Shown one piece after another: positions 3,187 through 30,946 of a stretch of DNA of 64,000 bases. The notes beneath the pieces were generated by a model. The model worked only from the letters and a program-made list of their open reading frames with translations. It was not told the DNA's origin and ran no database searches. The stretch is from Alphaproteobacteria bacterium. Lineage in GTDB: Bacteria > Pseudomonadota > Alphaproteobacteria > MPNO01. How positions within the stretch are numbered: position 1 is the stretch's first letter; every line of letters begins with the position of its first letter. The position numbers and the translations under genes were made by a program. The stretch lies in the NCBI GenBank assembly GCA_964291675.2, contig OZ219866.1, positions 1,888,001 to 1,952,000 of the forward strand. Reading direction: 5' to 3'.

Positions 3187-4065
3187 ATGGGCGAGGTCGA
3201 AGTCGCCGCAGGCGGCAACGCGGTGCTGGGCGAGAGCCCGCTCTGGTCGCCGGGCGAGGCGGCGCTCTACTGGGTCGACATCAACAACCCGACGGTGCAC
3301 CGGCTGGACCCGGCGAGCGGCGAGCGGAGGCGCTGGCGGATCGAGACCGAGACCGGCTCGATCGGCCTCGCCGGCGAGGGCCGGCTGGTGGCGGGGCTCA
3401 GGACCGGGGCGCATTATCTCGACCTCGAGAGCGGCAAGATCGAGAAGATCTGCGACCCCGAGGGCGAGGGCCGCTTCAACCGCAACCGGATGAACGACGG
3501 CAAGGTGGACCGCGCCGGGCGGTTCTGGGTGGGGACGATGAACGACCCCGGCCACGCGCCCGAGGGCACGCTGTGGCGGATCGGGGCGGACGGCGCGGCC
3601 GAGCCGATGCTGCGCGGGATCCGCATCCCCAACGCGCTCTGCTGGAGCCCGGACTCGTCCGTCATGTACTTCACCGACTCCTACTCGAACGAGATCTGGG
3701 CCTTCGACTTCGACCTCGCCACCGGGGCGATGGAGAACCGGCGGGTGTTCGCCCGCCTGCCCGAGGACGAAGGCGTGCCGGACGGCGCGACGGTGGACGC
3801 CGAGGGCTTCGTCTGGTGCGCCCGCATGTTCGGCGGCAAGGTGAGCCGCTTCGACCCCGACGGCGCCCTCGAACGCTCGATCGCGCTGCCGGTGCCGCAG
3901 GTCACGTCGTGCGCCTTCGGCGGGGCCGATCTCGACACGCTCTACATCACCACCGCCTCGCTCCGCATGGACCGCGCGGCGCTCGCCGGGCAGCCGCTGG
4001 CGGGCGCGCTGTTCGCCGCCGATCCCGGGGTGCGCGGCCTCGCCGAGCCGGAGTTCGGCGCCTGA
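3187..4065 (+). CDS. SMP-30/gluconolactonase/LRE family protein
   Basis: LGESPLW, RMNDGKVD, PNALCWSPD and PDGATVDAEG motifs. Confidence 0.9.
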   Translation: MGEVEVAAGGNAVLGESPLWSPGEAALYWVDINNPTVHRLDPASGERRRWRIETETGSIGLAGEGRLVAGLRTGAHYLDLESGKIEKICDPEGEGRFNRNRMNDGKVDRAGRFWVGTMNDPGHAPEGTLWRIGADGAAEPMLRGIRIPNALCWSPDSSVMYFTDSYSNEIWAFDFDLATGAMENRRVFARLPEDEGVPDGATVDAEGFVWCARMFGGKVSRFDPDGALERSIALPVPQVTSCAFGGADLDTLYITTASLRMDRAALAGQPLAGALFAADPGVRGLAEPEFGA

Positions 4066-5264
4066 CCGAGGGGCGCGCCACCTCCTGGCCGGCGGTGGCG
4101 ACGATCGCCGTCGCCGGCATCGTGGCGGCGTTCCAGATCGGCAAGCTGCCGGCGGCGCTGCCGGGCTTGCGCGCCGAGCTCGGCCTGACCCTGGTGGAGG
4201 CGGGCTGGATCGTGTCCGCGCTGGCCGCGGTGGGCGTGGCCACCGGCATGGTCTGGGGCTTCGTCGCCGACCGCTTCGGCCACCGCCGCATGCTGCTGTC
4301 GGGGCTCGGCGTGATCGTCCTCGGCACCGCGCTCGGCAGCCTGGCCGAGACCGGGGCGGCGCTGTTCGCCACCCGCGTGGTCGAGGGCTGCGGCTATGTC
4401 GCGGTGCTGACCGCGGGGCCGACGGCGATCGGCGCCTTCTGCCGCGAGCGCGACCGGCCGATGGCGCTCGGCCTGTGGGCGTTCTACATGCCGGTCGGGC
4501 TGGCCGGCATGGTGGTGGTCTCGCCGGCGGCGATCGAGGCGGCGTCCTGGCGCGGGCTGTGGCAGCTCAACGGCGCGCTCGCGCTGGCCGCCATCGCGGC
4601 GGCGGCCTGGGCGACGCGGGACGCGCGCGGGGCGCGGGCGGCGACCGCCGCCGGCGGCGCGACGCCGATCTGGACCGCCATCCGCAAGACCGTCACCAGC
4701 CCGGGCCCGCCGACGCTCGCGGTCTGCTTCGCCGCCTACTCGCTGGTCTACCTCTCGGTCTCGGTCTTCCTGCCGACCTTCCTGATCGAGCGCCAGGGCT
4801 ACGCGCACCACGCCGCCGCCTACTGGGCGGCGCTCGCCATGGTGGCGAACGCGCCGGGCTGCGTGCTCGGCGGCTGGCTGCTCAGGCGCGGCTGGCCGGC
4901 GGCGCGGGTGGTCGGGCTCGCCTATCTCGGCATGCTGGTCTCGACGCCGCTGATCTTCGCCGACGGCATCGACCCCGCGCTCCGCCTCGGGGCCGCGATC
5001 TTCATGCCGTTCATCGGCGGCATGATCCCGCCCGCCGTGCTCGCCCGCACCGGGGCGCTGGCCGCCGCGCCCGGGCTCGCGGCCACCTGCGTCGGGCTGG
5101 TCAGCCAGGCGCTGATGCTCAACCAGCTCATCGGCCCGCCGCTGCTCGCCGCCCTGGTCGCCGGCCTCGCCTCCTGGGAGCGCGCCAACTGGCTCACCTT
5201 GCCGATGATCCTGCTCGGCCTCGCCGCCGCCTGGGTGCTGTCGCGGCTGGACAGGCGCGCCTAA
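4062..5264 (+). CDS. MFS transporter (CynX/NimT-like); start uncertain, possibly CTG
   Basis: ~400 aa hydrophobic; GFVADRFGHRR motif A; TRVVEGCG. Confidence 0.8.
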   Translation: MTEGRATSWPAVATIAVAGIVAAFQIGKLPAALPGLRAELGLTLVEAGWIVSALAAVGVATGMVWGFVADRFGHRRMLLSGLGVIVLGTALGSLAETGAALFATRVVEGCGYVAVLTAGPTAIGAFCRERDRPMALGLWAFYMPVGLAGMVVVSPAAIEAASWRGLWQLNGALALAAIAAAAWATRDARGARAATAAGGATPIWTAIRKTVTSPGPPTLAVCFAAYSLVYLSVSVFLPTFLIERQGYAHHAAAYWAALAMVANAPGCVLGGWLLRRGWPAARVVGLAYLGMLVSTPLIFADGIDPALRLGAAIFMPFIGGMIPPAVLARTGALAAAPGLAATCVGLVSQALMLNQLIGPPLLAALVAGLASWERANWLTLPMILLGLAAAWVLSRLDRRA

Positions 5265-23093: not shown

Positions 23094-25427
23094 TCAAGTC
23101 GCCGGATCGGCGCGGCACATCCGGGCCAGCGCGTCCGGGCGGATCGGGATCTCCGTCACCTCGACCGCGAAGGGGGCGAGCGCGTCCTCGACCGCCGCGG
23201 CGACCGCCGCGGCCGCCGGCACGGTGCCGCTCTCGCCCACCCCCTTGACGCCGAGCGGGTTCAGGCCGGTCGGCGATTCGAGGTGCCGGATGGCGATCGG
23301 CGGCAGCTCGACGGCGCCGGCGATCGTGTAGTCGGCGAGCGTCGCGGTGAGCGGCTGCGCCTCGCCGTCGAAGACGATGCGCTCCAGGATCGCGGTGCCG
23401 ATTCCGTGCGCGACGCCGCCCCGTACCTGGCCGTCGACGATCAGCGGGTTGATCATGCGCCCGCAATCGTGCACCACGACGTAGCGCAGGATCGCCACGT
23501 GTCCGGTCTCCGGATCGGCCTCGACCTCGGCGACGTGGCATCCGTTGGCGTAGCTCAGCGCATCGAAGGGCAGCGCCGCGGTGGCCTCCAGCCCGGGGGA
23601 GGCGCCGGCGGGGAGCGCGTAGCCGGGCGTGCCGTAGACCGCGTTGGCGAGCTCGCCGAAGCCGACGGAGAGCTCCGCCACGCCGCGCACCCGGGCGCAC
23701 CCGTCGACGAGCTCGATGTCGTCGGGCGCCGCTTCGAGGCGTAGCGCGGCGAGGCTGCGCAGCTTGTCCGCCACCTCGCTTGCCGCCGTCAGCGCCGACG
23801 AGCCGGCATTGACCGCCTGGCGGCTGGCCGAGGCGCCGATGCCGATCGCCATCGCGGCGGTATCGCCCATCACGATGTCGATCGACGCGGGGTCGACGCC
23901 GAGCCTGTCGGCGCAGATCTGCGCCAGCATGGTCCGCGTCCCCTGGCCGATCGCCGTCGCGCCGGTGACCAGGCTCACCCGCCCCGACGGGGCGACGCGC
24001 ACCGTCACCGCCTCGAACGGGCCGCGCCCGGTCCCCTTGACGTAGTTGGCGAGCCCGATGCCGAGATGGCGCCCTTCGGCGCGCGCCGCCGCCTGCCGCG
24101 CCCGGAACCCGTCCATCCCGGCGGCGTCCAGCGCGGCGTCGAGGCAGGCCGGGTAGTCGCCGCTGTCGAGCACGATGCCCGAGCCGCTGCGCGTCGCAAG
24201 CGGCCGCGCATAGGGCATCTCCTCGGCGGCGATGAAGTTGCGCCGCCGCACCTCCTCGCGCGCCAGCCCGGTTGCGGCGGCGATGCGGTCGACGATGCGC
24301 TCCATCGCGAAGATCCCCTGCGGATGCCCGGCGCCGCGCACCGGTGTGGTGGGCACCTTGTTGGTCACCGCCACCCGCACCCGCATCCGGTAGGCCGGCA
24401 AACGGTAGGGGCCGGGCACCACGGTCGCGGCGTTGTAGGAGAGGTTCAGCCCGCGCGCGGTATAGGCGCCGTGGTCGTGGATCATCTCGCCGCGCAGGGC
24501 GAGCAGGCGGCCGTCCGCGTCGGTCGCCGCCTCCATCTCCCAGTACTGGTCGCGCTCCTGGGTGGTGGCGGTGAAGTGCTCGCGCCGGTCCTCGATCCAC
24601 TTGACCGGACGGCCGAGACGCCGCGCCGCGTGGGCGATCACGATGTCCTCGGGGTAGACCACGAGCTTGGGCCCGAAGCCGCCGCCGAGATCGGCGGCGC
24701 GGACCGCGATCCGGCTCTCGTCGAGCCCGAGCGTCGCCACCAGGGCGCGCAGCGCGCCATGCGGCGCCTGGCTCGACAGAAACAGCGTCAGCCGGTCGTC
24801 GAGCGGGTCGGGTACGGCGACGGCGCCGCGGCACTCGATGGCGAGGCCGAGCCCCTTGTGCTGCTTCAGCGAGACCCGCACGCGATGGGCGGCGGCGGCG
24901 AAACCCGCCTCGACGTCGCCATAGCCGATCTCGTACTCGGCGAGCAGGTTGTCGTCGAGATGGCGATGCGCGCGGGGCGCGCCCTCGGCCAGCGCCTCGC
25001 TGCAGTCGGAGGCGGCGGGCAGGGCGCGGTAGTCGATTTCGACCGCCGCGGCCGCGTCCTCGGCGGCGTAGCGGCTGTCGGCCAAGACCACGGCGACCGG
25101 CTCGCCGACATGGCAGACCTCGTCCCGGGCGAGGATCTGGCGGTCCAGTATGTGGCGGTAGGACGGGCTCGGGAGCGCCGTCACCAGCCGTTCGGCGGCG
25201 AGATGCGGCGCGATCTCGGCATGGCCCAGCACCGCCGCCACCCCGGGCCGCGCGGCGGCGGCCGCGCTGTCGATGCCGGCGATCCCGGCATGGGCGAAGG
25301 GGCTGCGGACGAACGCCGCGTGCAGCATCCCCGGCAGGCCGATGTCGTCGACGAAGCGCCCGGCGCCGCGCAAGAGCGCCGGGTCCTCCAGCCGCTTGAT
25401 CGGCTTGCCGATCAGCGTGGAGCTCAG
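23094..25427 (-). CDS. Xanthine dehydrogenase/CoxL-family molybdopterin-binding subunit; start possibly CTG
   Basis: IGKPIKRLEDPALLRG, LGGGFGPK, GQGTRT and KGVGESG; active-site loop VRGAGHPQ. Confidence 0.88.
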   Translation of the reverse strand: MSSTLIGKPIKRLEDPALLRGAGRFVDDIGLPGMLHAAFVRSPFAHAGIAGIDSAAAAARPGVAAVLGHAEIAPHLAAERLVTALPSPSYRHILDRQILARDEVCHVGEPVAVVLADSRYAAEDAAAAVEIDYRALPAASDCSEALAEGAPRAHRHLDDNLLAEYEIGYGDVEAGFAAAAHRVRVSLKQHKGLGLAIECRGAVAVPDPLDDRLTLFLSSQAPHGALRALVATLGLDESRIAVRAADLGGGFGPKLVVYPEDIVIAHAARRLGRPVKWIEDRREHFTATTQERDQYWEMEAATDADGRLLALRGEMIHDHGAYTARGLNLSYNAATVVPGPYRLPAYRMRVRVAVTNKVPTTPVRGAGHPQGIFAMERIVDRIAAATGLAREEVRRRNFIAAEEMPYARPLATRSGSGIVLDSGDYPACLDAALDAAGMDGFRARQAAARAEGRHLGIGLANYVKGTGRGPFEAVTVRVAPSGRVSLVTGATAIGQGTRTMLAQICADRLGVDPASIDIVMGDTAAMAIGIGASASRQAVNAGSSALTAASEVADKLRSLAALRLEAAPDDIELVDGCARVRGVAELSVGFGELANAVYGTPGYALPAGASPGLEATAALPFDALSYANGCHVAEVEADPETGHVAILRYVVVHDCGRMINPLIVDGQVRGGVAHGIGTAILERIVFDGEAQPLTATLADYTIAGAVELPPIAIRHLESPTGLNPLGVKGVGESGTVPAAAAVAAAVEDALAPFAVEVTEIPIRPDALARMCRADPAT

Positions 25428-25894
25428 CTCTCCCGCCCCCGCTCGGTGACCACGCGCTCGAACGCCGCCAGGGTCTCCTCGCTGACATGGTGCTCCAGGC
25501 CCTCGGCATCGGCGCGCGCCGCGTCCTCGCTGACGCCGATCGCCTGGAGGAAGGCGACCACGATCTGGTGCCGCCGCCGCGAGGCCTCGGCGATGCGCCG
25601 CCCCTCGTCGGTCAGGAAAATCGCGCGATAGGGCTGGGTGGTGACCAGCCCGCTCTGCTGCAGCCGCGCGACCGTCTTGGTGACGCTCGCATGGGTCACG
25701 CCGAGCCGGCGCGAGATGTCGGCGGAGCGCGCCTCGCCGGTCGAGTCGATGAGGTCGGCGATCAGCTCGACATAGTCCTCGGCGATCTCGGTCTGACGCG
25801 CCAGCCGGGTCTGGCGGTGATGCCCGGCCTGCTCGTCGGGCTCGACGAGCACCGGCGCCACCTTCGCCGGCCTCCTGCGCGTGTCCTTCGCCAC
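25424..25894 (-). CDS. mntR: Manganese-dependent transcriptional regulator (DtxR/MntR)
   Basis: EIAEDYVELIADLI, PYRAIFLT, RRRHQIV and ADAEGLEHHVS. Confidence 0.9.
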   Translation of the reverse strand: MAKDTRRRPAKVAPVLVEPDEQAGHHRQTRLARQTEIAEDYVELIADLIDSTGEARSADISRRLGVTHASVTKTVARLQQSGLVTTQPYRAIFLTDEGRRIAEASRRRHQIVVAFLQAIGVSEDAARADAEGLEHHVSEETLAAFERVVTERGRES

Positions 25895-25946: not shown

Positions 25947-25992
25947 TTGACAATTCTGGGCCGGGGCCAAATAAGTTAGCCATGGTTAAACA
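25947..25992 (+). promoter_or_regulatory. Sigma70-like promoter overlapped by MntR-like operator
   Basis: TTGACA at 25947; near-palindrome AAGTTAGC-CATG-GTTAAACA (25973..25992) resembles the TAGC-N4-GCTA MntR box. Confidence 0.65.
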
Positions 25993-26016: not shown

Positions 26017-27849
26017 TTGGCACGCAACCGGGTTCGGGGGACGGCCCGGCCGGCGGCCGCGCTGCTCTGCCTCGCCGTCCTGCTGGCGGGCACGGCCTCG
26101 GCCCATGTGGCGAGCCGCGCCGAGTGGCACCCGCTGGCCGCCGCCTATCTCGACGCGGTGTTCGCGAGCCGGATCGACCCGGTCGACTGGCGGGGGATCG
26201 CGCGGCGCTACGACGGCACCGATCCGGCGTTCCGCCATGTCGGTTCCGAGCCGGCCTTCGCCGCGCTCGCCCGGCTCGCCCGCTTCGCCGGGACCGATCC
26301 CGGCGCGGCGATCCGCCGGGCGATCGCCGCGCGCGACGCAGGCGCGCTGAGGCAGGCGGCGGCGCGGGCCAACGCGACCGCGCTCCGCGCCGGGCTGGAG
26401 AGGGTTCGCGGGCTGCTGAACAGGCCGCGCGAGGCGCGCGCCGAGCTTCGTTCCGCCCGCCTCCTCTATCGCGGCTTCGAGACCGGCCTGCGCGCCCGCG
26501 ATCCGGCGGCGCACCGGCGTCTCGGGCTCGCCTGGCTCTCCCTCGCCACCCTGCTCTCCGGCGGGCAAAACGGGGCGGAGGCGGAACGCCTGATCGGCTT
26601 GCTGGCGGGCGAGATCCGCGCCCGGTTCGAGGCGGCGGCGCCGCCCTTGCCGCCATCCGCCCGGCTGCCGCCGGGCGGCGCGCTGGTCGAGCAGCGGCCG
26701 CTGCCCCGCGCGGTGCTCAATTTCGAGCGGCGCGGGGTGGAAGAGAAGACGCTCTTCCTCGTCGCCTATGGCGACATGCTGTTCGATTCGCCGGAAATTT
26801 TCGGCGCGCCGGCCCGCAGCCTCGGCCTCGCCTGCTCGTCCTGCCACAACCGGGGCGACGTCAACCGGGCGCTGTTCGTCCCCGGGCTCAGCCGCCGCCC
26901 CGGCGGGATCGACGTCGACAACGGCTTCTTCAACCCGCGCGGCAATGACCGGCGGTTCGACCCGCTGGACACGCCGAGCCTGCGCGGCATCCGCTTCACC
27001 GCGCCCTACGGGCGGGACGGGCGCACGGCGAGCCTGCGCGAATTCGTCCGCAACGTGATCGTCGGCGAGTTCGGCGGCGCGGAGCCGACCCCGCTGATGC
27101 TCGATGCCCTGCTCGCCTACATGAACGAGTTCGACTTCCTGCCGGCGCCGCTGCTGGCGCGCGACGGGCGCCTCAACGAGCGCGCGGGCGCGGCGGCGCG
27201 GCGCGGCGAGGCGATCTTCAACCGCCCCTTCCCCGGCATGGCGGGCCGGTCGTGTGCGACCTGCCACGTGCCGGACGGCAATTTCATCGACGGGCGGCGC
27301 CACGACATCGGCTCGGTCGCGGCCTCGATGCCCGGCGCCCGCGACGGCGCGCTGGATACCCCGACGCTCCTGGGCATCCGCTACACCGCGCCCTATTTCC
27401 ACGACGGCTCGCTGGCGACGCTCCCCGCCGTGGTCGCCTGGTTCGACCGGCGCTACCGCCTCGGCCTCGATGCGGGCGAGCGGGCCGACCTCGCGGCCTA
27501 TCTGGAGGCGGTCGGCACCGGGGAGCATCCCTTCGAGGCGTTCGACGGCACCAACACGCGCTTCCGGCTGGGCTTCGAGGAGGCTTCGACCTTCCTGTCG
27601 ACGCTGGACACGCTGATCCCGGCGCGCGACCGGCGCCATGCCTTGCTGCTGCTCGCCACCGTCGGCCGCGATCTGCGCTCCGATGCGGCGGCGATGGACA
27701 ACATCGCGGCGCTCGGCCGGGTGTCCGAGCTGGCCGCGAAGATCGACGCCATCTCGGACGCGGTCTCGGCGGAGGACTGGGCGGCGGCCGAGCGGCTGTG
27801 GGCCGGCTACAAGCAGGCGGAGGCGCGTCATGCGGCCGAGCTCTACTAG
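26017..27849 (+). CDS. Secreted di-heme cytochrome c peroxidase/MauG-like protein with extra helical domains
   Basis: Signal peptide ending ASA-H; CSSCH (~26833) and CATCH (~27253); DTPSLRGIRFTAPY and DTPTLLGIRYTAPYFHDGS. Confidence 0.8.
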   Translation: MARNRVRGTARPAAALLCLAVLLAGTASAHVASRAEWHPLAAAYLDAVFASRIDPVDWRGIARRYDGTDPAFRHVGSEPAFAALARLARFAGTDPGAAIRRAIAARDAGALRQAAARANATALRAGLERVRGLLNRPREARAELRSARLLYRGFETGLRARDPAAHRRLGLAWLSLATLLSGGQNGAEAERLIGLLAGEIRARFEAAAPPLPPSARLPPGGALVEQRPLPRAVLNFERRGVEEKTLFLVAYGDMLFDSPEIFGAPARSLGLACSSCHNRGDVNRALFVPGLSRRPGGIDVDNGFFNPRGNDRRFDPLDTPSLRGIRFTAPYGRDGRTASLREFVRNVIVGEFGGAEPTPLMLDALLAYMNEFDFLPAPLLARDGRLNERAGAAARRGEAIFNRPFPGMAGRSCATCHVPDGNFIDGRRHDIGSVAASMPGARDGALDTPTLLGIRYTAPYFHDGSLATLPAVVAWFDRRYRLGLDAGERADLAAYLEAVGTGEHPFEAFDGTNTRFRLGFEEASTFLSTLDTLIPARDRRHALLLLATVGRDLRSDAAAMDNIAALGRVSELAAKIDAISDAVSAEDWAAAERLWAGYKQAEARHAAELY

Positions 27850-28696
27850 GCGCCTCGCGCTCGCGCTTGCGCTCGCCGCGCTGGCCGCCTGGCCGGCGGC
27901 GGCGGACCGGCCGCTCACCGTCGCCTTCGTGCCGCAGGAGAACCCGGAGAAGCTGCTCGGCGACGTGCGCGCCATCGGCGCCTATCTGGAGGGCGCGACG
28001 GGACGGCGGATCGAGCCGCGCCTCACCATCGACCACGCGGCGGCGATCGAGAGCCTCGCGGCCGGGCGCGCCGACATCGCCTTCATGGGCGCGCTGCCCT
28101 ATGTGATGGCGCGCTCGCGCATCGGCGCGCGGGCGCTGCTGTCGGAGGTCTATCGCGGCAAGCCGAGCTACCGGGGCGCGGTGTTCGTGCGCCGGGATGG
28201 CGGGATCGCGCGGCTGGCGGAGTTGAGGGGCAAGTCCATCGCCTTCGCCGACCCGATCTCGGAATCGGGCTTCCTCTACCCGCTCGACCTGTTCGTCGAG
28301 GCCGGGCTGCTGGCCGCGCGCGACGACCCCAGGGCGTTTTTCGGCGAGGTCTATTTCGCGGGCGGCTACCAGCAGGCCATCCAGGCGGTGGCCAACGGGC
28401 TGGTCGACGCCGCCGGGGTGAGCATCTACGCGACGCTGCTGCTCGATGCCGGCCAGCGCGGCGCGGTCGCGGCGATCGCCCGCACGCCGCCGATCCCGTC
28501 CCATGTCGTGGTCGCCCGGGACGGGCTGGAGCCCGGCCTCCGCACCGCCTTCGTCGAGGCGATGCTGGGGCTCAACGCGCCCGCGAGGCGGCATCTGCTG
28601 AAACACGTCTATGGGCCGGACGGCTATGTCAGGCCGGACCACGCGGCCTATGACCGGGTCGCCGCGATGGCGCGCAAATACGGGCTGATCCGGTGA
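27830..28696 (+). CDS. PhnD/PtxB-fold ABC substrate-binding protein with non-canonical ligand residues
   Basis: Signal peptide; LRGKSIAFADPISESGFLYP and AVANGLVDAAG. Confidence 0.85.
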   Translation: MRPSSTRRLALALALAALAAWPAAADRPLTVAFVPQENPEKLLGDVRAIGAYLEGATGRRIEPRLTIDHAAAIESLAAGRADIAFMGALPYVMARSRIGARALLSEVYRGKPSYRGAVFVRRDGGIARLAELRGKSIAFADPISESGFLYPLDLFVEAGLLAARDDPRAFFGEVYFAGGYQQAIQAVANGLVDAAGVSIYATLLLDAGQRGAVAAIARTPPIPSHVVVARDGLEPGLRTAFVEAMLGLNAPARRHLLKHVYGPDGYVRPDHAAYDRVAAMARKYGLIR

Positions 28697-29517
28697 GCGC
28701 CGACGCGCTTCGCCTGTCGGGTCTCAGGGTCCGCTACGCCGCCGATGTGGAGGTTGCGCTGGCGATCGACGCGCTCGCGATCGCCGCCGGCGAACGCGTC
28801 GCGGTGATCGGGCCGAGCGGCTCCGGCAAGACCACGCTGTTGCGCGCGGTTCACGGGCTGGTCGCGCCGGAAGCCGGCACGGTCATGCTGGACGGCGTGG
28901 ACACGGCGTCGGCGGCGGCGCGCAGCCGCGTCTTCCGGCGCCGTCATGCCGCGGTGTTCCAGGAGTTCCAGCTCGTCGAGCGCGCCTCCGTGCTCGGCAA
29001 CGTGCTGTGCGGCCGGCTGGGCCACGCGCCGGTGCTGCCGAGCCTGCTCGGCCTGTTCGGCGCCGCCGACCGGGAGGCGGCGCTGGCGGCGATCGGGGCG
29101 ACCGGGCTCGGCGACTACCCGCGGCGCCGCGTCGACACACTGTCGGGCGGGCAGCGCCAGCGCGTCGCGGTCGCCCGCGCGCTCGCCCAGGCGCCGTCGC
29201 TGATCACCGCCGACGAGCCGGTCAGCAATCTCGACCCCGTCATCGCCGACGACATATTGCGCGCGCTCATGGGCTCGGCGCGCGATCACGCGATCACCGT
29301 GCTCGCCGCCGTGCATCACCCGGCGCTCGCCACCGCGCATGCCGACCGGGTGATCGGGCTCGCCGGGGGCGAGATCGTCCATGACAGCGCGGACGGCGCG
29401 CCGCTCGACGCATCGGCGCTCAGGCGGATCTACGGCCGCAGCGTGGCGCCGCAGATCGTCCAGGACGTGACGCCCCGCGAAGCCGGCGATGCGCGCTCCC
29501 CTCGCAACGTGGCGTAG
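28693..29517 (+). CDS. PhnC-like ABC ATPase
   Basis: GPSGSGKTT, LSGGQRQRV, ADEPVSNLDP and NVLCGRLG. Confidence 0.88.
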   Translation: MSADALRLSGLRVRYAADVEVALAIDALAIAAGERVAVIGPSGSGKTTLLRAVHGLVAPEAGTVMLDGVDTASAAARSRVFRRRHAAVFQEFQLVERASVLGNVLCGRLGHAPVLPSLLGLFGAADREAALAAIGATGLGDYPRRRVDTLSGGQRQRVAVARALAQAPSLITADEPVSNLDPVIADDILRALMGSARDHAITVLAAVHHPALATAHADRVIGLAGGEIVHDSADGAPLDASALRRIYGRSVAPQIVQDVTPREAGDARSPRNVA

Positions 29518-30265
29518 CAGCCTCGGCCGCGCGGCGGTGGCTCTCGGCATCGTCGTCGCGATCGCCTGGGCCTGGGCCGGGACCGGGTTCGATCCGGCCG
29601 CGCTCGGCATCGGCCTGCCCCGGCTCGGCGACTTCCTCGCCCGCATGGCGCCGCCCGATCTCAGCATCGCCGGCGTGGTGTTCCGGGCGATGCTGGAGAC
29701 GGTGCAGATCGCGCTGCTCGGCACCTTCCTCGGCGCTGTGCTCGCAATCGGGCTCGGCCTGCTGGCGGCCGCCAATTTGACGCCCGCCTGGGTCCACCAG
29801 CCGGTCAAATGGCTGCTCGGCGCGATCCGCGGAATCCCGGTGATCCTGCTCGCGCTGATGTTCGTCAGCGCCTACGGGCTCGGCCCGCTGCCCGGCGTGG
29901 CGGCGATCGCGCTGCATTCCTCGGGCATGCTGGGCAAGTTCTACGCCGAGGCGTTCGAGGCCGCCCGGCCCGGCCCGGTCGAGGCGCTGAGGACCGCCGG
30001 CGCGGCCTGGCCGCAGATCGTCCGCTTCGCGATGCTGCCCCAGATCGCCCCCGAGCTCGCCCGCGACACGCTGTTCCGCTTCGAGCTGAATCTGCGCGAA
30101 TCCCTGGTCCTCGGCCTGGTCGGCGCAGGCGGGATCGGCTTCTACATCCAGCTCTACGCCCGCGCATTCCACTACGACAAGGTGGCGACGCTGACGCTGG
30201 TCGTGCTGGCGATGGTGGTGCTGGTCGAGCAGGCGAGCGTGCTCGCACGGCGGCGGCTGAGCTGA
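29489..30265 (+). CDS. PhnE-like ABC permease
   Basis: GLGPLPG, GKFYAEAFE and FELNLRESLVLGLVGAGGIG. Confidence 0.88.
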   Translation: MRAPLATWRSSLGRAAVALGIVVAIAWAWAGTGFDPAALGIGLPRLGDFLARMAPPDLSIAGVVFRAMLETVQIALLGTFLGAVLAIGLGLLAAANLTPAWVHQPVKWLLGAIRGIPVILLALMFVSAYGLGPLPGVAAIALHSSGMLGKFYAEAFEAARPGPVEALRTAGAAWPQIVRFAMLPQIAPELARDTLFRFELNLRESLVLGLVGAGGIGFYIQLYARAFHYDKVATLTLVVLAMVVLVEQASVLARRRLS

Positions 30266-30403: not shown

Positions 30404-30946
30404 CTAGCTCGCGATCTGCGGGCCCATCTGCTTGACCGCGCCGGTCTCCAGGTTGAAGGCGATGCGCGGGATCACGTCCAGATTGGTTCCCGTCACCCGG
30501 ACGAAGCGCGCGTCGTCGGGATAGTCGATCGAGTGGATCTTGCCGTCCGCATAGATCCCGGCATGCCCCGGCGTCAGCCGGTAGGATTTTTCCGGCCGGA
30601 CCTCGCCGCGGCCGGGATCCGAGCCGTCGTCGAGCCGCTCCCACTCGGTCATGTCGGTGTATTTGGTCGCCTGGCCGTAGATCGCCCAGGAGGCGCCGTG
30701 GTCGTGCGGCGGCGAGACCCGCGCGCTCGCGTTGATGTGGGACAGCACCTGGAAGCCGAGATCGGGATCGTCGTAGAGCACGCGGACCCCGCGCTCGACG
30801 CCCGGCCCGCAATATTCCTCGACGAACTCGGGCACCCGGAGCAGCCGTTCGAGGTCGCGGCGGACCTTCTCGCGACCGCCGGGGCCGGGGTCTTCGCCGA
30901 GATGCCTGCGGCAGTCCTGACAGAACTCTTCCAGCGTATAGGCCAT
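30404..30946 (-). CDS. Cupin / cysteine dioxygenase-like protein
   Basis: PPHDHGASWAIYG and IHSI metal-binding motifs. Confidence 0.7.
   Translation of the reverse strand: MAYTLEEFCQDCRRHLGEDPGPGGREKVRRDLERLLRVPEFVEEYCGPGVERGVRVLYDDPDLGFQVLSHINASARVSPPHDHGASWAIYGQATKYTDMTEWERLDDGSDPGRGEVRPEKSYRLTPGHAGIYADGKIHSIDYPDDARFVRVTGTNLDVIPRIAFNLETGAVKQMGPQIAS

Follow-up and report, generated by a model that had tools for sequence, protein, structure and literature searches.

We report that a 64,000-nucleotide stretch of an alphaproteobacterial genome (contig OZ219866.1; hereafter the window) encodes a solute-binding protein of the PhnD/PtxB fold with an altered ligand pocket, and we suggest, with a probability of roughly 0.5, that this protein is the binding subunit of an MntR-repressed metal importer, probably for manganese, that operates with a redox partner. 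The genes for a di-haem protein, the binding protein, an ATPase and a permease would together constitute a four-gene ABC import system under MntR repression. What we computed are the residue changes with their degree of conservation, the fold, the linkage of the genes, the regulator with its operator and the predicted complex; from these we infer metal binding, manganese as the metal, a redox step and import as the direction of transport.

The binding protein (288 aa; 27830..28696, + strand; identified by ORF translation, Pfam and phmmer as a periplasmic member of PF12974) carries a signal peptide at approximately residues 1-25 and is predicted to be secreted. Residues 31-274 cover profile positions 1-242 of the 242 in PF12974 with 195 bits (cut-off 27); beyond this family SBP_bac_11 and NMT1 scored below threshold, and the Pfam search gave no match to the transferrin or FbpA families, nor to PF01297, the cluster A-I Mn/Zn binding proteins that include MntC, SitA and PsaA. 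Comparison with the solved Ps_PtxB (5o2j) using phmmer gave an E-value of 3e-25. The AlphaFold2 model (mean pLDDT 88.8, pTM 0.81) has the two-lobed class II binding-protein fold, and in Foldseek the leading matches are ArrX, PtxB, AioX, HtxB and PhnD (E 1e-24 to 1e-17), with ArrX 6x8w at E 1.1e-24 and TMq 0.77 and PtxB 5o2j at E 3.2e-24 and TMq 0.71. Transferrins rank after the PF12974 structures (3v83_D, E 2.8e-14, TMq 0.67), and a family profile search gave a marginal match to melanotransferrin (E 8.7e-4) over residues 112-165, i.e. from Tyr114 to the Ser-Glu-Ser loop. Public records label these genes as phosphonate transporters.

The first-pass annotation of the window had picked out the motifs IDHAA, PSYRG, ISESG and GGYQQ and, from an alignment made by eye, had proposed that they replace the oxyanion ligands of PhnD/PtxB. 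The motifs are present in the ORF, at residues 67, 112, 143 and 178 and within one codon of where they had been placed, and the alignment is upheld both by phmmer against Ps_PtxB and by the family profile against three PtxB structures, which agree in equating His69 with Tyr49, Tyr114 with Tyr94, Ser-Glu-Ser with Ser124-Thr125-Ser126 and Tyr180 with His155; the phosphite ligands and the 'STS-H motif' of PtxB are those named by Bisson et al. 2017 (PMC5700983). Specifically, alignments and model place His69 (28034..28036, + strand), the first residue of helix 69-77, at the phosphite ligand Tyr49 of Ps_PtxB (Tyr55 of Te_PtxB), Ser144-Glu145-Ser146 (28259..28267, + strand) at the N-terminus of helix 145-157 with Glu for the Thr of the S-T-S loop, and Tyr180 (28367..28369, + strand) at the N-terminus of helix 180-188 in place of PtxB His155/His160; according to the alignments Tyr114 on the hinge (28169..28171, + strand), the counterpart of PtxB Tyr94/Tyr100, is retained. 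The changes Y>H, T>E and H>Y thus fall at true PtxB ligand positions. Two further changes had escaped the first reading: the capping Tyr (Ps Tyr203, Te Tyr208) is replaced by His225 on the second hinge strand (28502..28504, + strand; alignments), and Asp16 of PtxB, the anchor of the capping Tyr (PMC5700983), by Gln36 in the latch loop Gln36-Glu37-Asn38 (27935..27943, + strand; alignments to PtxB).

Among the 120 closest homologues, which reach down to approximately 59% identity, Tyr114, Ser144, Glu145 and Ser146 are invariant (120/120 each), and His69, Tyr180, His225, Gln36 and Asn38 are each present in 119, with Glu37 in 113. By homology the substituted residues correspond to ligand-contacting positions of PtxB, and the pattern exceeds what chance would give. 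A survey of 150 PF12974 representatives at 50% identity gave Y-Y-T-H as the commonest pocket pattern (36/150), and Glu at position 145 in 14 representatives, all at least 48% identical to the query and belonging to one clade only. Sister clades have other odd pockets, Y-Y-M-D, Y-Y-S-D and Y-Y-[SAT]-Y with a His cap. The oxyanion ligand set consists of Tyr, Tyr, S-T-S and His with a capping Tyr, whereas the query has His, Tyr, S-E-S and Tyr with a His cap. Our data therefore suggest an anion pocket remodelled into a predicted His/Tyr/Glu pocket that resembles those of the iron-carrying transferrins, with two His, two Tyr and one Glu (His69, His225, Tyr114, Tyr180 and Glu145) as the candidate ligand set.

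It is very improbable that the databases name this protein correctly and that it is an ordinary binder of phosphonate, phosphite or phosphate. Replacements affect the cap and three of the six phosphite ligands, and an acidic Glu stands in the anion loop. A single substitution at a ligand position of this kind switches binding or abolishes it: in HtxB, Phe in place of His blocks the third oxygen site, and mutants of the cap Tyr bind 100- to 1000-fold more weakly (PMC5700983). The retention of Tyr114, Ser144 and Ser146 would suit an oxyanion, as would the score in the broad NCBIfam subfamily TIGR01098 (147.4 bits, cut-off 112.05) and a permease that passes the PhnE cut-off; however, the protein stays below the PhnD equivalog cut-off (TIGR03431, 142.5 vs 261.1 bits), the C-P lyase PhnJ (PF06007) was found neither in this 93.7%-complete genome nor among the neighbours, and the regulator is MntR.

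This regulator gene, mntR (25424..25894, - strand; NCBIfam and Pfam), encodes a manganese-responsive member of the DtxR family, is divergent from the operon and scores 199.2 bits against the NCBIfam MntR equivalog NF008273 (cut-off 153), with the Pfam domains Fe_dep_repress and Fe_dep_repr_C. Across 80 related loci an mntR homologue lies divergently upstream in 24, and an MntR/DtxR-type gene adjoins the cassette in 31 (30 detected by tblastn and one, L020, by Pfam). Between mntR and the operon a matrix search identified a candidate MntR operator, a 20-bp imperfect palindrome (25973..25992, unstranded), whose half-sites and spacing resemble the enterobacterial MntR consensus (PMC1698941). With 30.0 bits it is the top match in the 4.8-Mb genome (next 18.2), in a matrix that was built from related loci and has the window's own site in its training set. 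Sites of at least 23 bits were detected in 23 of the 25 divergent intergenic regions, and 12 of the 47 non-training loci have a site of at least 20 bits within 1300 nt upstream (60,437 positions) against 6 sites in 543,457 positions elsewhere, the scores being inflated in low-GC loci; the other 35 have no operator of at least 20 bits within those 1300 nt. A de novo palindrome search of the intergenic regions was swamped by GC-rich palindromes, and matrix refinement was used instead. The adjoining MntR and the MntR-type operator place the operon in a predicted MntR regulon.

The cassette could instead be a ferric-iron importer, a PhnD-fold analogue of FbpA for which the di-haem protein, in the manner of the peroxidase of EfeUOB-type systems, would convert Fe2+ to Fe3+ for the Tyr/His/Glu site; the DtxR-family regulators would then sense iron or both metals. 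The imelysin family (PF09375) has been implicated in iron uptake, and of 14 loci with shorter relatives of the di-haem core, two have an adjoining imelysin gene, namely those of the two best-scoring relatives (L103 and L104). Moreover, some of the regulators that adjoin the cassette are long DtxR-type proteins with an FeoA domain (L020), the model has transferrins as its next structural neighbours, and a Tyr-rich site with a synergistic anion is the known solution for Fe3+ (PMC10804667). Against iron, the MntR equivalog cut-off is passed by the regulator in the window, which has only 38.2 bits against actinobacterial DtxR, the candidate operator has MntR-type spacing, and a Bosea locus (L039) has an Nramp gene and a FUR-family gene as neighbours, the Fur-like regulators of Rhizobiales being the Mn regulator Mur, which controls mntH (PMC1698941); a second locus (L067) also has an Nramp neighbour. 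On balance we consider iron an improbable cargo.

Downstream of the binding-protein gene are the genes for a PhnC-like ABC ATPase (28693..29517, + strand; PF00005; TIGR02315 223.2 bits, below the cut-off of 266.1) and a PhnE-like ABC permease (29489..30265, + strand; TIGR01097 256.6 bits, above the cut-off of 216.7). The ATPase gene is found in 79 of the 80 loci. The permease gene is found in 76, and the loci that lack it are at contig ends. In 77 loci the gene immediately upstream of the binding-protein gene encodes the di-haem protein, the other three loci being cut by the contig end. The loci span Alphaproteobacteria, Acidobacteriota, Dadabacteria, Thermodesulfobacteriota, Anaerolineae, Spirochaetia, Methylomirabilales and Akkermansiaceae, and cultured carriers of the cassette include Bosea, Roseovarius lutimaris, Pseudosulfitobacter pseudonitzschiae and Hoeflea. 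In each of the five isolate genomes that carry the cassette, a SitA/MntC-like PF01297 protein accompanies ZnuA; the cassette is not needed as the sole Mn route. The genome analysed here has two PF01297 proteins elsewhere, one of them ZnuA-like and the other unassigned; Nramp was found neither in this genome nor in any of the five isolate genomes. Complementarity with known Mn importers was considered as a test but, with Nramp absent and PF01297 proteins present, it does not discriminate.

The ligand might also be no metal at all but a small molecule, neutral or positively charged, or an oxyacid without phosphorus, which the di-haem enzyme makes or consumes; the link to MntR would then be indirect. 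PF12974 ligands are varied, as judged by entry titles (arsenite for AioX, arsenate for ArrX, glycerol phosphate for GpxB, ATP for XAC2383), the odd pockets of the sister clades suggest that the family explores ligand space, and the side chains of His, Tyr and Glu lend themselves well to hydrogen bonding too. Such a ligand would leave the metal regulators, operators and Nramp neighbours in distant lineages unexplained, and no metabolic enzyme for a compound of this sort is conserved beside the cassette; we regard it as unlikely.

The proposed redox partner is a secreted di-haem protein of the bCCP/MauG family (610 aa; 26017..27849, + strand; PF03150 with 37.8 bits, cut-off 25.6, and PF21419), and the last 20 nt of its gene, stop codon included, also form the beginning of the binding-protein gene. 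It consists of an N-terminal helical domain, a di-haem core and a C-terminal four-helix bundle. The first CxxCH haem-binding motif (Cys273, Cys276, His277; 26833..26847, + strand) is present in 27 of 27 aligned homologues and in at least 97% in a set of 64, and the second (Cys413, Cys416, His417; 27253..27267, + strand) likewise in 27/27. By sequence the best solved relative is 6e1c (E 5e-8), an entry entitled 'MauG-like protein associated with microbial copper homeostasis'. VIA-align gave BccP 3o5c (Z 12.1, rmsd 4.6, 227 aligned) and 6e1c (Z 11.1, rmsd 4.3, 224 aligned), Foldseek returned weak bCCP/MauG matches alone (best E 2.6e-3), and residues 503-610 matched generic four-helix bundles such as PsbQ (Z 13.7, rmsd 2.4, 99 aligned), a value within the tool's noise range for helical bundles. 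The equivalog cut-offs for MauG and MbnH were not reached (TIGR03791, 40 vs 443.85 bits; TIGR04039, the MbnH family, 51.7 vs 362.85 bits), the MbnH family being the best NCBIfam match though well under its cut-off. Other genomes encode shorter relatives of the di-haem core, which are without the N-terminal domain and without a neighbouring binding protein. That the N-terminal domain is imelysin-like found no support, hhalign against two imelysin neighbours giving probabilities of 0.5% and 0.4%. The sole candidate for a fusion of the two proteins among longer proteins (P0270, 557 aa) reads as the 3' half of the di-haem gene, an out-of-frame stretch and then the binding protein, and is most likely an assembly frameshift.

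Complex prediction for the di-haem and binding proteins gave a score of 0.67, and the best of three controls gave 0.00. In the calibration the mark reached by our pair was attained by 116 of the 157 solved complexes and by 2 of the 215 mismatched pairs; the present job differs from that calibration by its custom alignments and two riding haems. The runs share at least 79% of contacts, with a partner pLDDT of at least 84. In the predicted complex the di-haem protein sits over the cleft mouth and makes contact through its N-terminal helical domain; the interface on the binding protein comprises residues 67-68, 70-71, 138, 141-142, 174-179, 181-182 and onwards, and flanks His69, Glu145 and Tyr180. 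The di-haem model is poor around the haems (pLDDT <50 for 278-339 and 416-465).

Such docking beside the invariant Tyr/His pocket would also suit a maturase, in which the di-haem protein would alter residues of the pocket with the help of H2O2 and so make the real ligand site, e.g. by turning Tyr into a DOPA- or quinone-type residue or by a Tyr-His cross-link, in the manner of MauG on pre-methylamine dehydrogenase and MbnH on MbnP. Both precedents act on partner proteins, MbnH turning a Trp of MbnP into kynurenine in a copper site and MauG building TTQ (PMC11951088); the closest solved relative and the best NCBIfam match of the di-haem protein point the same way, as does the gene linkage in the related loci. 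However, Trp, the residue modified in both precedents, is absent from the mature binding protein, and the predicted interface is formed by the N-terminal helical domain, with the haem regions poorly modelled. A maturase function is compatible with metal import, and we give it a small chance.

In the metal importer that we favour, the PhnD/PtxB scaffold would be kept and the oxyanion pocket rebuilt, lined by His69, Tyr114, Glu145, Tyr180 and His225, to take up a hard metal cation, with manganese as the most probable one; a synergistic anion of the kind known from transferrin and FbpA could sit at Ser144/Ser146 and the helix N-termini, all of which are retained. Docked over the cleft by its N-terminal helical domain, the di-haem protein would prepare or hand over the cargo in a redox step, and the loaded binding protein would then deliver it to the PhnE/PhnC-type translocator for import. 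Some points count against this: the permease lies above the PhnE equivalog cut-off and the translocator therefore looks ordinary, the retained serines and helix dipoles make an anion ligand possible, and MntR is able to control non-importer genes too. Moreover, the known Mn2+ binding proteins have His/His/Glu/Asp sites and Tyr ligands are unusual for Mn2+, and the metal importer thus requires Mn3+, another metal or a metal-anion complex. The first-pass annotation had in fact proposed a convergent trivalent-metal site. Residue types as in transferrin/FbpA, the MntR regulator and operator, Nramp and Fur in Bosea and the di-haem partner all lend weight to a putative metal site. Convergence is plausible because the protein is a PF12974 member without a Pfam match to transferrin or FbpA; since the class II fold is shared with both, it would be a parallel reuse of one scaffold.

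More speculatively, the cassette may be a third, redox-coupled Mn importer, in which the di-haem enzyme loads the PhnD-fold protein with Mn(III) at an independently evolved, transferrin-like His2-Tyr2-Glu site, a version that we hold to be possible yet doubtful. The Mn(III) could come from Mn(II) and H2O2, or from environmental Mn(III) or Mn oxides; in a variant the enzyme itself would forge the metal site by modifying the pocket tyrosines. If so, this would be the first trivalent-manganese transporter, a bacterial 'manganese transferrin', and it would raise the question of bacterial uptake of oxidised manganese, the common form in oxic waters and sediments.

According to a 2021 review the conserved bacterial Mn importers are of just two types, MntH and MntABC (PMC8632737); a PhnD-fold system that is under MntR control and depends on a haem protein as its obligate partner would be a third type. 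After transferrin and FbpA, this would be the second time that a scaffold for anions had independently become a metal site of Tyr and His, and it would pair an ABC binding protein with a redox enzyme in a new way. Our literature search found no prior description and no paper that connects a PhnD-type protein with Mn or MntR; PMC7266159 and PMC4334477 mention both subjects, in passages that do not connect them. Inferences of phosphonate use drawn from these genes in metagenomes are probably wrong, and the genes span at least eight lineages. The five residues, the predicted interface and the cultured carriers make the hypothesis directly testable.

Compared with known systems, the cassette shares with PtxB, PhnD and HtxB the PF12974 family and fold, the PhnC-like ATPase and PhnE-like permease, the hinge Tyr and the two loop Ser, but differs in Tyr to His69, Thr to Glu145, His to Tyr180, the cap Tyr to His225 and Asp16 to Gln36, and in having MntR control in place of a phosphorus link and an obligate di-haem partner. 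The ligand set of transferrin is Asp/Tyr/Tyr/His. The predicted site resembles those of transferrin and FbpA, which share the class II fold, in its putative ligand types (Tyr, Tyr, His and a carboxylate) and in an anion-holding helix N-terminus, FbpA binding Fe3+ by Tyr residues and (bi)carbonate (PMC10804667); unlike these, it belongs to another sequence family and its regulator suggests Mn over Fe, and FbpA is without a haem partner. With MntABC/SitABCD/PsaABC and MntH it has in common the type of regulator and presumably the metal, whereas the binding proteins of MntABC/SitABCD/PsaABC are of PF01297 (cluster A-I), to which the query has no match, and have no redox partner. PF01297 binding proteins have His/Asp/Glu sites. 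The imelysin/di-haem gene pairs are alike in that relatives of the same di-haem core adjoin imelysin genes (2/14 loci), but no imelysin similarity was found in the 610-aa protein (hhalign probability <1%). With the MbnH-MbnP and MauG-preMADH pairs the cassette shares an enzyme of the bCCP/MauG superfamily, and its two genes are tightly linked and their products predicted to form a complex; in contrast to these pairs, the enzyme has an ABC binding protein that lacks Trp as its partner, and it has extra N- and C-terminal helical domains and scores far below both equivalog cut-offs. Finally, in EfeUOB, where EfeB is a DyP-type peroxidase and EfeU the permease, a periplasmic haem peroxidase is likewise encoded with a metal uptake system.

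The PF12974 binding protein P0001 (288 aa from the ORF translation, window positions 27830-28696(+)) is encoded in a four-gene cassette whose first member is a gene for a 610-aa di-haem bCCP/MauG-like protein (26017-27849(+)), the 3' end of which runs 20 nt into the binding-protein gene. These two genes are followed by genes for a PhnC-like ATPase (28693-29517) and a PhnE-like permease (29489-30265; TIGR01097, 256.6 against 216.7), while an mntR gene (25424-25894(-); NF008273 equivalog, 199.2 bits against 153) is separated from the di-haem gene by a spacer of 122 bp. The ORFs downstream of the permease, a 180-aa ORF (30404-30946(-)) without Pfam or NCBIfam match and an Atg22/MFS gene, are shared just with L003 and L004, the two loci closest to the window, and we do not consider them part of the system.

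A one-genome-per-species scan gave 542 pattern matches, of which 257 code for a relative; the comparison below uses the top 80 of these 257 loci. They include Alphaproteobacteria (Defluviicoccus, Hyphomicrobiaceae, Hoeflea, Bosea, Roseovarius, Pseudosulfitobacter and others) as well as Acidobacteriota, Dadabacteria, Thermodesulfobacteriota, Anaerolineae/Caldilineaceae, Spirochaetia, Methylomirabilales and Akkermansiaceae. Carriers available in culture include Bosea, Roseovarius lutimaris DSM 28463 and Pseudosulfitobacter pseudonitzschiae DSM 26824. Using tblastn with the window's proteins, the di-haem gene was found directly upstream of the binding-protein gene in 77 of the 80 loci, and in the other three the binding-protein gene begins less than 190 nt from a contig end. 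The PhnC-like and PhnE-like genes were detected in 79/80 and 76/80 loci, respectively (the misses being contig ends), and in L045 both are positioned upstream of the di-haem/binding-protein pair.

With respect to regulators, tblastn placed an MntR-like gene upstream in divergent orientation in 24 of the 80 loci and on the same strand in six. For 39 loci lacking such a match, 92 upstream ORFs were subjected to Pfam searches, which identified a long DtxR-type regulator carrying a FeoA domain (L020) and, in two Bosea loci (L039 and L067), a divergent Nramp (MntH-type) gene beside the cassette, with a FUR-family regulator in between in L039. Fur-like regulators of Rhizobiales have been described as the Mn regulator Mur, controlling mntH and sitABCD (Rodionov et al. 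2006, PMC1698941). Moreover, in four acidobacterial loci (L037, L052, L059 and L069) the di-haem gene is immediately preceded, in the same orientation, by an outer-membrane-type gene of PF13557 ("Phenol_MetA_deg"), through whose product the same cargo may cross the outer membrane; the other neighbours among these ORFs were unrelated according to Pfam.

To describe the operator we used a matrix seeded with the enterobacterial MntR consensus as given in PMC1698941 and refined on 25 divergent intergenic regions, noting that its scores are inflated in low-GC loci. The refined motif is a 20-bp palindrome with the half-site spacing of the enterobacterial consensus, and a site of at least 23 bits is present in 23 of the 25 regions. 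In the window the candidate MntR operator is located at 25973-25992 (20 bp, 30.0 bits) and adjoins a promoter-like site for mntR; it is the best match in the 4.8-Mb genome (next best 18.2 bits), the site itself being in the training set. Outside the upstream region, the 24 training loci have no site of at least 20 bits in 301,085 positions. Among 47 non-training loci, such a site is present in the 1300 nt upstream (60,437 positions) in 12, compared to six sites in 543,457 other positions, and the 12 upstream sites precede the first gene of the operon: the di-haem gene (L019, L026, L038, L060 and L072), the PF13557 gene (L059 and L069) or a DtxR-like gene (L018, L020, L022, L024 and L050). The remaining 35 of the 47 show no site of at least 20 bits upstream, and that most loci without an adjacent regulator lack an operator weakens the interpretation given below. 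In L064, a DDE transposase ORF (3793-4671(-)) lies between a strong operator-like site (33.8 bits, 3711) and the di-haem gene (region ~3711-5021), which looks like an insertion parting the operon from its control region.

PF12974 ("Phosphonate-bd") covers the full length of P0001 (195 bits, cut-off 27), which has a Sec-type signal peptide (residues ~1-25) and no lipobox Cys. Among the NCBIfam models just the broad subfamily TIGR01098 was passed (147.4, cut-off 112.05), while the PhnD equivalog TIGR03431 was failed by a wide margin (142.5 vs 261.1). The top PDB match is a phosphite-binding protein, Pseudomonas stutzeri PtxB (5o2j, phmmer E 3e-25). PhnJ was not found in the window's genome (93.7% complete), and we regard the annotated ligand, a phosphorus oxyanion, as unlikely. 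The same genome encodes two more PF12974 paralogues (C2:1395707-1396399, 97.9 bits, and C2:2161595-2162290, 84.9 bits). The AlphaFold2 model of P0001 (27-row alignment) has a mean pLDDT of 88.8 and a pTM of 0.81, with low confidence in the signal peptide and loop 38-41 only. Foldseek with this model ranked ArrX, PtxB, AioX, XAC2383, HtxB, PhnD and GpxB first (E 1e-24 to 1e-16), and transferrins appear from rank 44 on (3v83_D, E 2.8e-14, TMq 0.67). There is also a marginal melanotransferrin match (E 8.7e-4) to family profile positions 115-168, i.e. P0001 residues 112-165, a stretch reaching from Tyr114 to the Ser-Glu-Ser loop, a likeness at the level of the segment.

Phosphite is bound by Y55, Y100, S130, T131, S132 and H160 in Te_PtxB (Bisson et al. 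2017, PMC5700983) and by Y94 together with the "STS-H motif" (S124, T125, S126 and H155) in the P. stutzeri protein (Ps_PtxB), and the same paper describes a capping Tyr (Y208 in Te_PtxB) held by an Asp anchor (D16 in Ps_PtxB). The pairing of P0001 with Ps_PtxB was read at a constant offset of 20 from the phmmer alignment, and a profile from 27 family members paired the residues identically when matched to three PtxB structures. Specifically, His69 aligns with Tyr49, Tyr114 with Tyr94, Ser144-Glu145-Ser146 with S124-T125-S126, and Tyr180 with His155. The three substitutions proposed in the first-pass annotation (Y>H, T>E and H>Y) are hence real, the two alignments being in agreement. Two further changes had escaped it: the capping Tyr203 is replaced by His225 and its anchor Asp16 by Gln36. 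As judged from the alignments, the candidate ligand set in P0001 comprises two His, two Tyr and one Glu, and the protein also keeps two Ser as well as three helix N-termini, the helices of the model starting at 69, 145 and 180. Since the PtxB homologues of the five residues all touch one small anion, we infer that these residues face one cavity.

A word-index search with P0001, in which 8000 candidates were scored, gave 1278 homologues at E <=1e-10, and in the best 120 of these (identity down to ~59%) Tyr114 and Glu145 are present in 120/120 and His69, Tyr180 and His225 in 119/120 each. An exhaustive search of 1.84 billion representatives returned 6458 relatives at E <=0.001. The commonest four-residue pattern among the best 150 of these is the canonical Y-Y-T-H (36), and 14 of the 150, some of them fragments and all at least 48% identical to P0001, have Glu at position 145. 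Three of the 14 lack His69, with Ile in one full-length protein and Asn or Leu in two fragments. Other departures from the canonical pocket are seen in neighbouring PF12974 clades, namely Y-Y-M-D (with a D-M-S loop), Y-Y-S-D and Y-Y-[S/A/T]-Y, the last with Tyr180 and the His cap already in place (proteins with such odd pockets: P0124, P0126, P0127, P0130, P0131, P0134 and P0138-P0140), and PF12974 seems to include several undescribed specificities.

Known Mn2+ sites use His, Asp and Glu, and therefore the Tyr-containing P0001 pocket is better suited to Mn3+ or Fe3+ than to Mn2+; with such a cargo a haem partner makes sense. Ferric iron is a rival to manganese here, and a Tyr-rich site with a synergistic anion is a known solution for trivalent iron (PMC10804667), while the window's regulator and operator are of the MntR type.

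The di-haem protein carries two CxxCH motifs (273-277 and 413-417), both invariant, with many invariant residues nearby. Among solved structures, the nearest to it in sequence is 6e1c (E 5e-8), entitled [quoted passage not shown], followed by hydrazine synthase gamma, YhjA and MauG. These relationships would also suit a role as maturase, as for MbnH or MauG (PMC11951088), against which speaks the absence of Trp from mature P0001. Its AlphaFold2 model is of no more than fair quality (pLDDT 67.6) and poor in the haem regions, the confident parts being an N-terminal helical domain (~80-205) and a C-terminal four-helix bundle (~515-609). Residues 503-610 (window ~27523-27846) align best to the extrinsic PsbQ/CyanoQ proteins of photosystem II (1nze, Z 13.7, rmsd 2.4, 99 aligned), although helical bundles often give Z values of this size and the match may mean nothing. 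After predicted signal-peptide cleavage most homologues (L003-L082) start with His, absent in the Bosea and roseobacter versions, followed by a short conserved motif ending in Trp-His-Pro. In P0270, a database protein of 557 aa, the 3' half of a di-haem gene is linked to the binding protein by an out-of-frame stretch, which probably reflects a frameshift in the assembly of a metagenome contig and no natural fusion.

In an even sample of 401 genomes of the class, 64 had a di-haem match at E <=1e-10 (including a weak match in the unpublished G245). The 29 loci returned beyond the window's genome have only shorter di-haem-core relatives, aligning from residue ~211 on (one from 96), and in none of the 29 do the 1.5-kb flanks encode the binding protein; the presence of the N-terminal domain is thus tied to that of the binding protein. 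The two best-scoring shorter relatives (L103 and L104), which lack the N-terminal domain and have no binding protein nearby, are directly beside imelysin (PF09375) genes, and at 12 other such loci examined the neighbours were unrelated, with no imelysin.

We predicted the complex of the di-haem protein (residues 30-610, with two haems riding along) and the binding protein (26-288). It scored 0.67 (runs 0.67, 0.68 and 0.64) vs 0.00 for the best of three controls; 116 of 157 solved complexes and two of 215 mismatched pairs reach this mark, and our run, which used our own alignments and carried the haems, is unlike that calibration. At least 79% of the contacts agreed between runs, and the pLDDT of the partner was at least 84. 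On the binding protein the confident contacts are 67-68, 70-71, 138, 141-142, 174-179, 181-182, 186, 189-192 and 200-211, which in the model encircle His69, Glu145 and Tyr180 at the cleft mouth. The contacts on the di-haem protein involve its mature N-terminus (31-36), helices 138-182 (including the invariant Gly170, Trp173 and Leu174) and 554-558. We know of no solved complex of a di-haem protein with such a binding protein, and the score therefore seems unlikely to reflect memorisation of one by the predictor. The prediction supports that the di-haem protein binds the binding protein.

The basis for our interpretation is computed: a His/Tyr/Glu pocket that is rebuilt and invariant, a cassette of four genes in fixed association, regulators and operators of the MntR type across several phyla, and a predicted complex over the cleft. 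These data suggest a hard metal cation, most likely manganese, as the cargo of P0001; the di-haem protein would act by redox chemistry on either the cargo or the pocket, and loaded P0001 would then feed the PhnE/PhnC translocator. A permease that passes TIGR01097, like an ordinary PhnE, weakens this interpretation, and a non-metal ligand is a further rival. Genomes with the cassette also encode SitA-like proteins, and thus the cassette would not be their sole route for manganese.

No description of a PhnD-type protein linked to Mn or MntR was found in a literature search with most subscription journals outside its reach, and a 2021 review (PMC8632737) names only MntH and MntABC as conserved bacterial Mn importers. 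We class the system as an ABC importer with a repurposed binding protein and a gained redox partner; it would be categorically new if its cargo is trivalent manganese, or if the enzyme forges the site.
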